Source: Microthyrium microscopicum
Taxonomy: Eukaryota
DNA length: 64,000 nucleotides
Assembly (NCBI GenBank): GCA_010405405.1
Contig: MU004233.1
Span: 65,067 to 129,066 of the forward strand
Reading direction: 5' to 3'
Shown here: one piece after another, positions 59,435 through 64,000 of the stretch
Layout of the letters: every line of letters begins with the position of its first letter
Numbering within the stretch: position 1 is the stretch's first letter
Made by a program: the position numbers and the translations under genes
The notes under the pieces: generated by a model
The model's database searches: none
The model's input: the letters and a program-made list of their open reading frames with translations, nothing else
What the model was told of the DNA's origin: nothing

Positions 59435-60293
59435 CTAAGCTTCCGACTTGAAGGCATCAGGGAAGCGGCGGATGTTTTGAGCCAAGTTTCCGTGGTTGGA
59501 AAGGAATTGCACATAAGCACCATCAACCTTGACGCGTCCTTCCTGGCGGAGCTTGACGTAGTCGTCACGGCGGAGGGGAGTGAAGCCCCAGTTCTTGCTG
59601 ACGATGATCTTCTGGCGACCGGGGAACTTGTACTGGCTACGGCGGATGGCTTCAATGGCAGTGGCGCGGTCTTTTCATCATAATTGTTAGCCAATTCTTT
59701 CTCTCGCAGCTTTTTAGGGTCAGAACTTACGATTGTCACGGGTCCGCACACTCAAGAGAATCTGACCAATGTTGACACGAGCGACCTTGCCGTTAGGCTT
59801 GCCAAAGGCACCACGCATACCCGTTTGCAGGCGATCGGCGCCGGCACACGACAACATCTTGTTGATGCGGACGACGTGGTAAGGGTGAGCGCGAATGCGC
59901 ATGTGGAAACCTTCCTTTCCGGCAATCTTCACGAGGTATTTGTTGGCGCAAATGCGAGCGGCTTCGAGGGCTTCGGAGGAGAGTTGTTCATACTCGTCTA
60001 TTTTCCTTTGTCAGCAACTTTGTTCTAGCGGTATCAGGTATTGTGGGAAGAAGGGACGTACTGGAGACGAGATGAACACAGGTTGGGAACTCATCGACAC
60101 CTGCGCGCTTGCGACCGAGATCGTAAATGCGGATTTTGGCACTGGGAATTGTTAGTTTGGGGTTGCGTAATTTTTGGACTCATGAGGTGAGGTTGGGGAG
60201 TAAGACGTACTCAGGCACACCACGGTTGAAGCGGGACTTTGGATAAGGCTTGTTCTTGCAGTAACGGTAGCATCTTGCTGGACGACGAGCCAT
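59435..60293 (-). CDS. RPL10: 60S ribosomal protein L10 (uL16)
   Basis: [52 protein letters not shown]. Three introns. Confidence 0.97.
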
Positions 60294-60838
60294 TTTTGGA
60301 GTTGTTTTCCTGAATGGTTCTGAGTGGTGGTTGTAGGAGAGGAAGAGGGAGAGAGAGCGGTGGTGATGTCTGGAGTTGGCTTGGTGGTGGTGGAGGGCTC
60401 GGGTGTGGCAAGGATTATTTTCGGCCCACAATCGCTTGCTTTGTGCAGTGCTTAGAAATCAATAAGACCCCAGTCCGTTTTATTGGCGATTATCAAGCAC
60501 CTGCCTGTTTTTAATTGCCCTAAAATTGCTTTCATTCTTATTTTGCCCGAAAGCTCAATTATTTCAATCGCGCTACTGAGCTTACTCAGCCACGTATCTT
60601 TTGAACATTGGCAACAAGCAGTTAAGATCAATTCTTATGCAGACGAACCGCAGTATCTTCACTTTTCACACATACATAATTTGGTCACATGGCAACTGCA
60701 AACCGGAGACGTCGAGCACATTGAAAGTTTTCATTGCTATCATTGTCTACAAGAGCAGAAGTCGGTGAAAGAGTTCATCCGACGGCCTAATGATCCTTCC
60801 ATCACCAATTTTGTGACGCTTGGAAAGAACACAGACAT

Positions 60839-61508
60839 CTATGCAGCGCTAGTGGACAGAATATCTGAGTCACCAGCGTCCAGAATGGAGAGGGTGGAGC
60901 AGCGGAAGAGTTTACCGCACGCAGTACCGAGCTCAATCTGCAGGGGAAACACATGTTAGCCAACTATTCATGTCCTCCAAAGCCTCGAAAAGATGGCTTT
61001 TTCTCAGGACACGCCCTCAAGGCATGAAATGCCTGGTCTTTGGGATGGAATATGTAAGAACTTACGTTGTTTCCGGAGAAATGATGGACGGGTGTCTTGG
61101 CCAACATGCTGTAGTACTCAAGCTCAGACTTCTTCAATGGTGGGGTGTTTCCAGCCTGGTTTTGGTAAGTATTTGGAGGAGTGTGATTGATGGTGGTGCC
61201 TTACAATGATGACAAGCTTGGCCTTTCCAGAGCGGAGGTGCTTGAGTGTGCCTGTTCAATCAAGTCAATCAACGTCCAACGAGCACCAATAGGTTTCCAT
61301 ACTCTTGTATCCCAAGGTCACCTTGCCAGATTTCATAACAAGTGCCAGGCGGGAGTTCTACAAATTTTGTAAGTCGAGGTCGTCTAAGGGAATATTTGAG
61401 GGGCTTGGAAACTGACGATGGAGTCGGCGGTCTTCTTGGATTTCTATATAGAGGTTAGCGCAATGATTTTGGAGCTCGGGAGAAGATCAGACTGACTTTT
61501 GGTGCCAT
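60839..61508 (-). CDS. RPL30: 60S ribosomal protein L30 (eL30), six short exons
   Basis: Spliced translation [109 protein letters not shown]. Absent from the ORF track. Confidence 0.96.
60970..61012 (-). promoter_or_regulatory. predicted kink-turn RNA element in the last RPL30 intron
   Basis: Transcript reads GUGUCC-UGA-GAA-AAAGCC..loop..GGCUUU-GGA-GGACAU: 6-bp C stem, 3-nt bulge, tandem G.A/A.G pairs and a 6-bp NC stem. Confidence 0.7.
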
Positions 61509-62172
61509 CGTTGCGCTTCAGCTGTAGTATTTTGCTGACGTGAATTGTTGCGCTCCGGTCGGATGTTGTTGGTTGAAAGTTGATGGAGAGTTCTTCACAA
61601 AATTTAGTGTGTGTAGTGGGCGCGAAGTCTTGGCATCGCGGCTCCACATTTCTAAGCGCGCGGCTCTGCCCAACGACAACTCAACTCCAATGTTTTATCC
61701 GAGTCCATTTTGACCATCTGCAAAGGTAAATTTCGCATGTACGAAGATCTGGAGATCGGGTAACTTTGTGGAACGAATACAACAGCAAGTTGTCAAAGAT
61801 TTGGCCCTTTTGCGGAGCGCCAAACCATCGACAAAACGACCAGCGTGCTCAGCTGCTCCCATGCTATATCTTTGATCCAGTGCTTTATTTCCCAAAGACA
61901 GTCATAAATTCTTGACCGTTCAGCGAGTACGCTGGCAATCAAAGTAAACTGTGATGAGAGACACCACAGTCGATGGGAGCGCATCGCTTATTGTGTCAAC
62001 CCATTGATACGCCAACTTGTCTTGTCCCCTATTCGCCAACTTGATCCTTCAATCCCACGAGTGCATCCTCATCCCTCAACCTTGTCGCAACTGCCTTGAT
62101 ATTAACCCCTAGCATCTGCCGATGCCTTCAAAGAAATGCCTCCAGGTTGAATGACCCGGCTCTTATATCACC

Positions 62173-64000
62173 ATGTGGTTCCTTATCCGTGTAGCTCTGG
62201 CGGTAGTGACGAGCTTTGTCTCACTATCTTATGGTTCTCAAAGCGTCCTGTCTGCAGGAGATCATCATATTCCTCAAGCAGTAAGCACATAATCTCCAAC
62301 AGGAACCCTGCGCAGGTATATTAACAAGCCAGTGTAACGCCATTGAACTGGCCATCAATGGCGATGTCTACCACCGCCGTACATCCGAGTACAATGACCA
62401 GCAAAAGGATTACTGGCTACTGCAACAAGCAAAGGACTATTCGCCTCATTGCCGCGTCACTCCTCGGGATGCCAAGGATGTCAGCATTGCTCTGAAGCTT
62501 TTTGGCAAACATCAGACTCCATTTGCTGTCAAGAGCGGTGGCCATAGCTTTCTCTCCGGGGCTTCCAATATCAACAATGGCATTACGCTCGACCTATCGC
62601 GCCTAAATTCAATCAAGCTATCAGAAGACAAGCAAAGCGTTCGGCTGGGTCCCGGCGCTACCTGGAAGGAAGTCTACCAGGTCCTTGAACCACTTGGTCT
62701 CACAGCACTTGGTAAGATTTCCCCATTTGGCATCTGAAATGTCTTGACAACATTCGATAAACGGGAAAAACGTCGTTTCATCATCGGAATCAATGGTAGC
62801 GTTTCTAATCGAGTGCTATGGTTCCCACTGAGTACGATGAGCCCTCCATGGTTTCACCCCGAAAAGATATGATGGTTGTCTCGGGCGTGTTTGCTCTCAC
62901 TGTAATAAAATACTGACAATGCCAGGTGCGCGAGCCGGTAGCGTGGGCGTAGGAGGATTCATTCTCGGTGGAGGATCAACATGGCTCTCGAATCGCCATG
63001 GATGGGCAGTAGACTCAGTACTGGAGTTTGAAGTCGTTGTCTACGGCAAGATCAAAACTGCATCAAGCACAGAGAACCCCGACCTATTCTGGGCTCTCAA
63101 AGGAGGCGGCAGCAACTTTGGCATCGTTACTGCCATCGCAATGGCCACTCATCCCCTTGGCGATCTTTATGTCTATGGTCAAAGCTGTCCCCAAGAATCA
63201 GTACCGCAAGGCCTTAAGGCGCTACAAAGCTTCACTGACGCCGGCTCAAACGATACTGGCTCTAGTGCAATAATGGGCGTCATGTTCACTCCGGGCCAGG
63301 AAGAACTCGCCGCAGCCATAACAGTTGTGAATATAGACAACGACCTGAATGCTGAAGGCTTGAAGTATTTTACGGACATACCGCAGTTTCATGCTGACAA
63401 CTTTACGATCAAGTTGACTGAACTCAGTGATCAAATGAGCCAGTATGCTGATCGAGAATATCGGAAGATCAAATTCTCGATTACTGTACATAACAACGCT
63501 ACTCTTCTTGGTCATTTATTTGAGGAATTGGAGAATTTGGTCCGCGATCATGATCTTGATGATATGCTTGGTAAGTTCATTTCGTCTCAAGTGGATTCTG
63601 AGAGCATGCCAACATAAAGTTCGTGATTTACGTATGACACCTCGGCCAGTCTATTACAGCTCTGGCTCCCATTTTGCCATTCTCATGCGTAAATCAATGA
63701 CAAATTTCCGCTAACATCGTACAGCCTTGGGCACTAGCTTCCAACCACTCACCAGATCGCATATCAGCAACCGCAACAATGCTCTCGGACTCTCTCACGT
63801 CACCTCTGGTCTAATGCTAGTCTCCTTTGAAATCTACTGGTCGGACGCCGCCAACTCCACCTACTTCGAAAAGCTCTCCAGAAATTTACATGACAAGCTC
63901 TGCGCTCGGGCAAGCGAGAAGCAAATGCTGCACAGATTTACATATCTGAACTATGCGGCAAGCTGGCAGGAACCGTTCAGTGGCTATGGAACAGAGAGTT
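62173..64000 (+). CDS. secreted FAD-binding oxidoreductase (BBE/6-HDNO-like), 3' end beyond the window
   Basis: Signal peptide, FAVKSGGH, GARAGSVGVGGFILGGG, DLFWALKGGGSNFGIVT, FTYLNYA. Confidence 0.9.
62712..62925 (+). mobile_element. introner-like intron (214 nt) in the FAD oxidoreductase gene
   Basis: GTAAGATT...CTGAC...CAG, restoring LTALG|ARAG. 62799-62821 matches the reverse complement of 32701-32723 at 22/23. Confidence 0.8.

Follow-up and report, generated by a model that had tools for sequence, protein, structure and literature searches.

A k-turn hairpin beside the branch site of the last RPL30 intron as a candidate element of eL30 feedback on splicing

In Saccharomyces cerevisiae, the ribosomal protein L30 binds a kink-turn (k-turn) of its own transcript, to which the first exon and the beginning of the intron both contribute (Eng & Warner 1991; Vilardell & Warner 1994; Chao & Williamson 2004; Macias et al. 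2008, cited in PMC11585973 and PMC3706390). According to the passages of the literature cited here, translation is a further target of yeast L30, which in the ribosome is bound to a k-turn of helix 58 (PMC3706390), and its site in the transcript is a 'peculiar' k-turn with a small internal loop (PMC1874613). The present study concerns an RPL30 gene, coding for eL30, in a stretch of 64,000 nucleotides (hereafter, the window) of the genome of Microthyrium microscopicum (NCBI GenBank assembly GCA_010405405.1, contig MU004233.1, positions 65,067 to 129,066 of the forward strand). The last intron of this gene carries, shortly before its putative branch site, a hairpin with the signature of a standard k-turn, designated KT2, which is described below as a candidate site for feedback of eL30 on splicing.

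As defined in the cited literature, a standard k-turn has a 3-nt bulge followed by G and A, which form sheared G.A and A.G pairs with an opposite A and G. Autoregulation is also described for archaeal L7Ae, whose mRNA carries the k-turn concerned in its 5' leader (Daume et al. 2017; Huang, Ashraf & Lilley 2019, PMC6298567); in the account given in the latter source, these regulatory k-turns have neither G at position 3n nor a C:G pair at −1b:−1n, and cannot fold in a protein-free state (PMC6298567). In fungi, Li & Breaker 2017 (BMC Genomics 18:785, PMC5640933) described an 'rpl30 motif' with 47 examples from 26 species, mostly located in 5' untranslated regions (UTRs), and proposed L30 autoregulation for it. 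The species listed in the cited part of that paper, all of them Pezizomycotina, include members of Aspergillus, Ajellomyces, Arthroderma, Coccidioides, Botryotinia, Chaetomium, Gibberella, Leptosphaeria, Magnaporthe and Myceliophthora, and the same part of the description makes no mention of k-turns, of introns for the motif or of branch points (PMC5640933).

The features of the window on which the analysis is centred are as follows.

60839..61508, minus strand: coding region of eL30 (RPL30), six exons, stop codon included, with a product of 109 amino acids
61508-61497, 61443-61417, 61357-61303, 61251-61205, 61155-61066 and 60937-60839, minus strand: eL30 exons 1 to 6, respectively
60938..61065, minus strand: intron 5, the last intron, 128 nt, GUAAGU...CAG, bounded by the exon joints seen in an RNA contig (X1)
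60969..61013, minus strand: branch-point-proximal k-turn hairpin (KT2), assigned from sequence, fold, covariance model and covariation among orthologues
60955..60960, minus strand: branch-point consensus GCUAAC with the putative branch A at 60956 (here and throughout, branch points are consensus matches and not mapped sites)

In silico joining of the six exons yields an open frame of 330 nt, and consecutive portions of the L7Ae/L30e domain (PF01248) are matched by exons 5 and 6. The best matches of exon 6 in the PDB are the eL30 chains of ribosome entries 7r81 (E = 4e-13) and 7olc (6e-13), below which dozens more eL30 ribosome chains are ranked. The RNA evidence comes from three runs (X1, X2 and X3), all in the form of contigs. 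A 477-nt contig of run X1, with 0 differing letters, has all six exons joined exactly at the inferred borders and skips 128 nt at 60937/61066; this shows the gene model to be right and the last intron to be spliced out in vivo. The contigs of X2, a soil metatranscriptome, and of X3 originate from relatives (88–99% alike) and are partial. The introns of the gene measure, in order, 53, 59, 51, 49 and 128 nt, so that the last one is 2.2–2.6 times as long as its neighbours.

The sequence of KT2 at 61012-60970 of the minus strand reads GUGUCC-UGA-GAA-AAAGCC...GGCUUU-GGA-GGACAU, and an extra C-G pair extends the hairpin to 61013-60969. The canonical (C) stem is formed by 61013-61007 and 60975-60969, the three nucleotides of the bulge (L1–L3) are UGA (61006-61004), and in the core GAA (61003-61001, supplying G.A, A.G and 3b) stands opposite GGA (60978-60976), with A.G at 3b.3n. 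The non-canonical (NC) stem comprises six pairs (61000-60995 with 60984-60979) and is closed by a 10-nt loop (60994-60985). At the level of sequence, KT2 thus has the 3-nt bulge with tandem sheared G.A/A.G, the Watson-Crick C helix and the NC helix of a standard k-turn, and both of its stems covary among relatives, as detailed below; judged by sequence, it is a standard k-turn. Within a 51-nt stretch, KT2 is the minimum free energy (MFE) as well as the centroid fold (−19.9 kcal/mol, z = −3.36, 0/200 shuffles as good), and the folding stability of the whole intron 5 is ordinary (z = −0.60). A strict rule for k-turn hairpins (C stem of at least 4 bp, NNN, GA, NC stem of at least 5 bp, GA) is matched by 6 of 2000 dinucleotide-shuffled versions of this intron and, across both strands of the window, at five places, KT2 included. 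The putative branch A lies 13 nt past the hairpin and 18 nt short of the intron end. The original prediction, made from the letters of the window, had reported this hairpin and its coordinates in the last intron of an RPL30 gene, had given that intron of 128 nt as about twice as long as the others (49–59 nt), and had described a canonical k-turn just upstream of GCUAAC. Sequence, position, gene identity, intron length and the standard core all stood up to the analysis.

For comparison of KT2 with its counterparts, relatives of the gene were collected from a metagenome collection, which was scanned with a degenerate DNA pattern for ten residues of exon 6, a query blind to the intron. The scan returned 115 loci (numbered with the prefix L), every one with an eL30-like exon 6; judging from eL30 sequence and intron style, we infer that they belong to filamentous ascomycetes. 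The end of exon 5 could be placed in 106 of them, and nine loci with truncated contigs or a divergent exon 5 (L009, L016, L022, L096, L104, L107, L111, L112 and L114) were left out. An intron at the exon 5/6 codon boundary is absent in 4 of the 106 loci and present in the other 102, which supply 81 distinct introns at the identical position, three of them short (58, 60 and 73 nt) and 78 long (119–242 nt). The strict k-turn hairpin was found in 72 of the 78 distinct long introns, compared to 0.47% of their dinucleotide shuffles, and under a relaxed rule the numbers are 75 of 78 and 12%, respectively. The G.A pairs and stems, whose loss from orthologues had been named in the original prediction as an outcome that would speak against it, are thus kept in these 72 introns, and they covary. 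Among the introns missed by the relaxed rule, that of L047 has a hairpin with one mismatch in the C stem (24.4 bits with the covariance model introduced below), that of L026 has a variant loop, and that of L080 holds no k-turn recognisable by either the finder or the covariance model.

Covariation was assessed in two alignments. The first, A1, comprises 67 distinct hairpins (66 loci and the window) picked by a finder that demands G1b, A2b, G2n and A1n. In A1, 81.4% of the cells are paired, compared to 73.1% in shuffles, and 107 cells are changed on both sides of a pair, compared to 48.5 ± 5.4 in shuffles, none of 500 of which reach 107. The covariation score of 0.351 falls to 0.04–0.15 if the partners are slid by 1–3 columns. 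At positions where the finder does not demand pairing, the C-stem pair next but three to the bulge is GC in 22 hairpins, GU in 18, AU in 16 and UA in 7; one NC-stem pair is UA in 36, CG in 16 and UG in 7, and a second is CG in 47, UG in 6, AU in 5, UA in 3 and GU in 2. The second alignment, A2, takes the 90 nt at the 3' end of each of the 79 long introns (the 78 and that of the window), with no motif selection; it was made with MAFFT and folded with RNAalifold. Its consensus fold consists of the same two stems around a conserved loop, with compensatory changes in 9 of 10 pairs; the G.A-core columns rank among the most conserved, and the branch consensus CTNAY is aligned just downstream of the hairpin in all 79 introns. 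The NC stem in A1 (columns 16-21 / 42-47) reads GAAGUC / GACUUU in most hairpins, and is more conserved than pairing needs, which could reflect direct contacts with eL30 or mimicry of helix 58 of the ribosomal RNA (rRNA).

The nucleotides of the core bear both on the folding of the element and on the identity of its partner. Among the 67 A1 hairpins, and at positions left free in the finder, L2 is G in 66, L3 is A in 41 and C in 26 but never U or G, 3n is G in all 67, and −1b:−1n is C:G in 66. Position 3b is A in 53 hairpins, U in 13 and G in 1, and all 67 have GGA as the 3' strand of the core. According to the published folding rules, as worded in the cited part of the source, G at 3n (or C at 3b), together with C:G at −1b:−1n, allows a k-turn to fold by metal ions alone (Huang, Ashraf & Lilley 2019, PMC6298567). 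The intronic hairpins have these nucleotides, and the near-invariance of G at 3n and of C:G at −1b:−1n therefore supports the k-turn assignment. The intronic k-turn is predicted to be kinked in Mg2+ before any protein arrives, so that control would be exerted by occupancy and not by refolding. As to the partner, position 3 of the loop sits in the protein pocket; in the passages of Clery et al. 2007 (PMC1874613), U at this position is strongly preferred by Snu13p/15.5K and L7Ae, whereas yeast L30 prefers C or A and tolerates G, and U is not shown there to be accepted. The pocket nucleotide in the fungal elements, both the intronic one and the one in the 5' UTR described below, is A or C and not U. 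The absence of U from all 67 hairpins at L3 therefore points to eL30 and away from Snu13, an argument that depends on a secondary summary of L30 pocket specificity (PMC1874613).

A covariance model was built from A1 and searched against the 115 loci (~163 kb, both strands) and against the 64-kb window. At E ≤ 1, the loci gave 127 matches, all on the gene strand; 124 of them end no more than 260 nt upstream of exon 6, that is, in the last intron, and the other three are located in L060 past the stop codon. The site is thus, as in yeast, in the transcript of the eL30 gene itself, all 127 matches being found in eL30 genes on the sense strand. The matches are distributed over 106 of the 115 loci, and the nine without one are L005, L057 and L106, which have a short intron, L027, L081, L052 and L016, which have no intron, and L026 and L080. 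Since matches to the seed sequences of A1 are expected by construction, the informative part is the silence elsewhere: at E ≤ 1, there were no matches in the rest of the ~163 kb of loci. In the window, KT2 scored 43.1 bits (its sequence was in the seed of the model), and the next-best matches have E = 0.5 and 1.

The position of the hairpin relative to the splicing signals is equally constant. In 76 of 76 hairpin introns, that of the window included, the end of the hairpin lies 5–19 nt (median, 14) upstream of the adenosine of the first CTNAY, and from this adenosine to the 3' end of the intron there are 10–29 nt (median, 17). In L060, the eL30 coding region is uninterrupted by introns, and past the stop codon (L060:560-940, minus strand) there are three tandem GT...AG intervals, each with a k-turn shortly before CTAAC or CTGAC; the model scores of these k-turns are 20.5, 29.5 and 34.2 bits. 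By their sequence, the three intervals look like 3'-UTR introns carrying the same k-turn module, and, if these introns are real, the k-turn would stay with the intron and its branch site even outside the protein-coding part. Because of the conserved spacing to the branch site and the retention of the element inside the apparent 3'-UTR introns of L060, splicing appears to be the step acted on. Intron 5 is long because it holds the element, as relatives without the element have introns of 58–73 nt.

Many long introns hold more than one such hairpin. Under the relaxed rule (background of 12% per intron), one non-overlapping hairpin was found in 46 of the 79 long introns, two in 27 and three in 3. 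The intron of the window has an additional hairpin upstream of KT2.

61014..61044, minus strand: degenerate upstream k-turn-like hairpin (KT1-like), the inner helix of which is present in the MFE and centroid folds of the intron

This hairpin reads CCC / AAA / GA / CC + AGGCAU-UUC-AUGCCU + U / GA / GGG. It was rejected as a true k-turn, since it fails the rule, with one extra nucleotide on the 5' strand and a C stem of just 3 bp, and it is a weak call. At the corresponding place, 30 of the 79 long introns (window counted) have a second k-turn better than that of the window.

In addition to KT2, a second k-turn was identified at the other end of the gene.

61505..61558, minus strand: k-turn of the 5' UTR and start codon, of opposite strand topology, assigned from its register with ATG in relatives, covariation of the C stem and the fold in the window

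In the window and in many relatives, this element has the form CC-GGA-GCGC ... GCGC-AAC-GAU-GG with an inner stem UCAGC/GCUGA. The non-bulged strand comes first and the C stem closes the inner hairpin; the A at 61508 is at once the first letter of AUG and the A (2b) of the A.G pair, and the NC stem, which consists of CC with GG and one G.U pair, takes in the U and the G of AUG. In the window, 9 nt separate the end of the element from the 5' splice site of intron 1, an intron that many relatives lack. The generic finder for this reverse topology, which asks for an NC stem of 2 bp, lacks specificity, matching ~230 places in the window, and the weight of the assignment lies in the ATG register across relatives. 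With a C stem of 4 bp demanded, the exact register with ATG was found in 17 of the 39 unique loci with enough upstream sequence, other offsets giving no more than three matches; with a 3-bp C stem and a looser start pattern, it was found in 28 of the 57 assessable unique loci, which represent 19 distinct sequences. In these 19 elements, L3 is C in 8 and A in 11, and 3n is G in all. Their C stems are GCGC/GCGC (8), GCUC/GAGC (3), GCG/CGC (2) and GAGU/GCUU (2), with GCAC/GUGC, GAGC/GCUU, GCGC/GCGU and GCGCU/AGCGC seen once each. RNAalifold recovered the same architecture from 16 finder-selected sequences, and, again for sequences selected by the finder, 7 double-change cells were counted compared to 1.5 in shuffles, 0 of 500 of which reach 7. 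The copy of the window has the same architecture but a weak fold (−12.5 kcal/mol, z = −0.9), and the RNA contigs at the 5' end of the gene extend just to 61533 and 61549, short of 61558.

The intronic and 5'-UTR elements share their key letters: both have loops with GGA opposite NN(A/C)GA(A/U), and both have C:G at −1b:−1n and G at 3n. The 5'-UTR site is kept in L005, where the last intron is short, and in L027, where it is missing; L081, L057 and L106 were not assessable at the 5' end. At least one k-turn in the transcript, be it in the 5' UTR, in the last intron or in the 3'-UTR introns of L060, was found in 56 of 56 loci assessable at both ends, and lineages differ in how many k-turns the gene has and where these lie.

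The 5' end of the eL30 gene also varies in its intron content. In the window, the first 94 coding nt are divided into exons of 12, 27 and 55 nt, and in many relatives (L007, L018, L021, L058 and others) the first three exons are fused, introns 1 and 2 being absent; intron content at this end is evolutionarily fluid. Directly downstream of the eL30 gene of the window, on the same strand, lies a gene similar to uL16 (RPL10) at about 59700-60260 (minus strand), so that two ribosomal protein genes are arranged in tandem with ~0.6 kb between them.

Taken with the described systems, the intronic element is closest to that of yeast RPL30, with which it shares the member of the protein family, the location in that protein's own transcript, the k-turn class, A or C in the pocket and the proposed target, the assembly of the spliceosome at the U2 step. 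Unlike the yeast site, which extends from the first exon across the 5' splice site into the beginning of the first intron, the hairpin described here is located in the last of five introns, 5–19 nt upstream of the branch adenosine, and involves no 5' splice site. It also differs in having a standard 3-nt bulge and in being often present in tandem. The 5'-UTR k-turn of the window resembles the yeast site more directly, as it lies at the 5' end and touches the translation start. The 'rpl30 motif' is likewise a candidate structured RNA tied to L30 genes, and both elements described here share its loop letters, as far as can be compared from the published description. The intronic hairpin does not share the 5'-UTR location of that motif, whereas the element at 61558-61505 does; by description, the 'rpl30 motif' probably corresponds to this k-turn over the AUG.

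Archaeal L7Ae offers a further parallel, a protein of the same ribosomal family with a k-turn in its own message, and the 5'-UTR element, too, covers the translation start. The fungal sites differ from the archaeal ones in having both folding features and are predicted to need no protein for folding, and the intronic element would act on splicing, a step absent from archaeal mRNAs. Kt-7 of Haloarcula marismortui, an element of ribosomal RNA and the reference for standard k-turns, has a core of GAA opposite GGA with A.G at 3b.3n and C:G at −1, and in this respect resembles the core of KT2.

No RPL30 structure is listed in the consulted part of Gao, Jones and Rivas (2021), and Rfam 15 contains no family matching the intronic or the 5'-UTR element (window positions 60000-62500 at E ≤ 10; five loci at E ≤ 1). 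The sole matches, to sR32, an archaeal C/D-box RNA, were obtained upstream of exon 6 at L020:655-707 (minus strand), L002:1299-1337 (plus strand) and L045:700-745 (minus strand). They score 16–19 bits against a gathering threshold of 40, are antisense and fall inside conserved coding sequence, and were judged to be due to chance, most likely one resemblance that recurs because the sequences are homologous. Within the full-text collection searched, no description of a k-turn close to the branch point of a fungal RPL30 intron was found.

Based on the conservation, the covariation, the branch-site spacing and the pocket nucleotide, we consider it probable that eL30 feeds back on the splicing of its own transcript via the k-turn beside the branch site. 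KT2 would serve as a candidate binding site for the product of the gene, eL30 being an L7Ae-family binder of k-turns, and free eL30 beyond the demand of ribosome assembly would occupy the pre-folded k-turn or k-turns. Upstream of the branch point, some 20 nt of the intron are contacted by SF3a/SF3b. The k-turn is located within the stretch that the U2 small nuclear ribonucleoprotein (snRNP) must hold, and its occupancy may hinder U2 snRNP and branch-site recognition. The last intron would then be retained: the frame continues for 33 codons inside intron 5 before reaching UAG, and the last 32 residues of eL30 would be replaced, among them the GKLF loop, whose aromatic residue is described in the cited literature as the chief RNA contact of yeast L30. 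The unspliced RNA would presumably be kept in the nucleus or degraded, and eL30 output would fall. At the k-turn over the AUG, the same protein could also block the initiation of translation. As for the interpretation given in the original prediction, an eL30-type k-turn acting on splicing remains the best reading and is partly supported. Its description of the arrangement as 'wholly intronic' holds for KT2, which lies inside the last intron, but not for the gene, which has a further k-turn over its AUG. The term 'switch' may be the wrong word for a k-turn predicted to fold without protein.

A number of observations weigh against this reading. The intronic element is absent from the short introns (58–73 nt) of L005, L057 and L106; the unique loci L027, L081 and L052 have no intron at the site and no k-turn match downstream; and the long introns of L026 and L080 lack the canonical core, so the intronic element is dispensable where other k-turn sites exist. 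The relatives are metagenome contigs, and kinship among the sequences inflates the cell counts. No intron-retaining contig was seen among the RNA contigs, which contain the fully spliced form only, although contigs cannot show absence. Judged by its core nucleotides, the element is not a folding switch of the archaeal L7Ae kind, and both the binding of eL30 and the effect on splicing are deduced from sequence comparison. KT2 is a standard 3-nt-bulge k-turn, unlike the peculiar site of yeast L30, and no literature support was found for a preference of eL30 over other family members for a k-turn of this type. Moreover, standard k-turns are bound by Snu13, a protein that is plentiful in the nucleus.

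In one alternative, eL30 does bind, and the outcome is something other than repression of splicing. The protein might mark or chaperone its transcript, be titrated by it, promote the splicing of a long intron, or act mainly at the 5' UTR with the intronic copies as stores. The A or C in the pocket is evidence for eL30 that serves this alternative equally, the k-turn is predicted to be pre-folded, the spliced form was the sole one seen among the RNA contigs, and there are lineages with the 5'-UTR site alone (L005 and L027). We nevertheless regard it as unlikely, since the 5–19 nt spacing in 76 of 76 introns and the retention of the k-turn inside the 3'-UTR introns of L060 point to splicing, and the yeast RPL30 precedent, as cited, is one of repression.

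It is also rather improbable that eL30 is not the sensor and that the k-turn is bound by another protein of the L7Ae family, such as Snu13/15.5K, Nhp2 or a subunit of RNase P/MRP, in an element of the small nucleolar ribonucleoprotein (snoRNP) type or similar to the mammalian K-loop RNAs. The presence of one k-turn per intron in three tandem UTR introns of L060 recalls the host genes of small nucleolar RNAs (snoRNAs). The consensus of box C is RUGAUGA, that of box D is CUGA, and box C/D k-turns have U.U at 3b.3n. The intron of the window contains neither box C nor UGAUGA; the 3' strand of the core is GGA, not CUGA, in every A1 hairpin; 3b.3n is A.G or U.G in the intronic hairpins; and the hairpin loops (about 3–17 nt in A1) leave no room for a guide, so that membership in the box C/D snoRNAs or K-loop RNAs, as defined by both boxes and guide room, is not borne out. 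Rfam 15 gave no sense-strand snoRNA match there, and the search of the ~163 kb of loci and of the 64-kb window brought up the element in eL30 genes alone. A 3-nt-bulge k-turn with G.A/A.G is, in the cited literature, a generic site for the whole L7Ae family, yet the lack of U at L3 (0/67) is at odds with the strong preference of Snu13/15.5K and L7Ae for U. The mammalian K-loop RNAs are intronic k-turn-type elements as well, and, as reported in the cited part of the preprint, those bound by 15.5K suppress the excision of their host introns (bioRxiv 10.64898/2026.08.03.742641), which also counts against eL30 as the partner. They are described there as having terminal C/D motifs, as numbering in the thousands and as not being tied to the gene of their binder, whereas the fungal elements have no box C, never have U at L3 and were seen in eL30 genes alone.

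An explanation independent of protein, in which the hairpin brings the 5' splice site effectively closer to the branch point or sets the branch site in position, is very unlikely. The unusual length of intron 5 in the window would fit it, and structures that join splice signals are known from yeast, e.g., the 'zipper stem' of RPL7B, according to the cited literature. A spacer hairpin, however, needs no invariant G.A/A.G core, no G at L2 or 3n and no C:G at −1; the length of the intron is itself due to the element, as judged from the 58–73 nt of relatives without it; and the same core signature recurs in the k-turn at the AUG, a place without any intron whose length could be reduced. A chance resemblance without function is practically negligible, since, even though the relaxed rules match 6% of the shuffles of the window intron and 12% of those of orthologous introns, it is refuted by comparative conservation, covariation and position.

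Feedback of eL30 on splicing through KT2 and its counterparts may be part of a broader arrangement, for which we see some grounds while stopping short of calling it probable. In this broader form, filamentous ascomycetes would sense free eL30 by a movable module, an intron with a k-turn 5–19 nt before the branch point that blocks the U2 snRNP from upstream; the module would be present in tandem in some lineages, be joined by an AUG k-turn in others, and reside in three 3'-UTR introns in at least one lineage whose coding region lacks introns. If this is true, it is the act of splicing, and not the reading frame, that is regulated, and the same protein-RNA pair has been rewired to another spliceosomal contact than in budding yeast.

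RPL30 of budding yeast is the textbook case of splicing autoregulation by a ribosomal protein, and studies of it have essentially been confined to a single lineage and a single position, the region of the 5' splice site. The same protein family and motif class are now found at the other end of an intron, near the branch site, in a large fungal group. The analysis refines an entry in a catalogue of 2017 that was made without motif class or mechanism. For the annotation of fungal genomes, the element explains a last intron two to four times longer than normal fungal introns. If eL30 binds, the hairpin would be a natural, compact (~45 nt) and portable protein-responsive splicing element with steric block of the branch site as its mode, and RPL30 would provide an example of an autoregulatory circuit that keeps its logic while the binding site moves around the gene.

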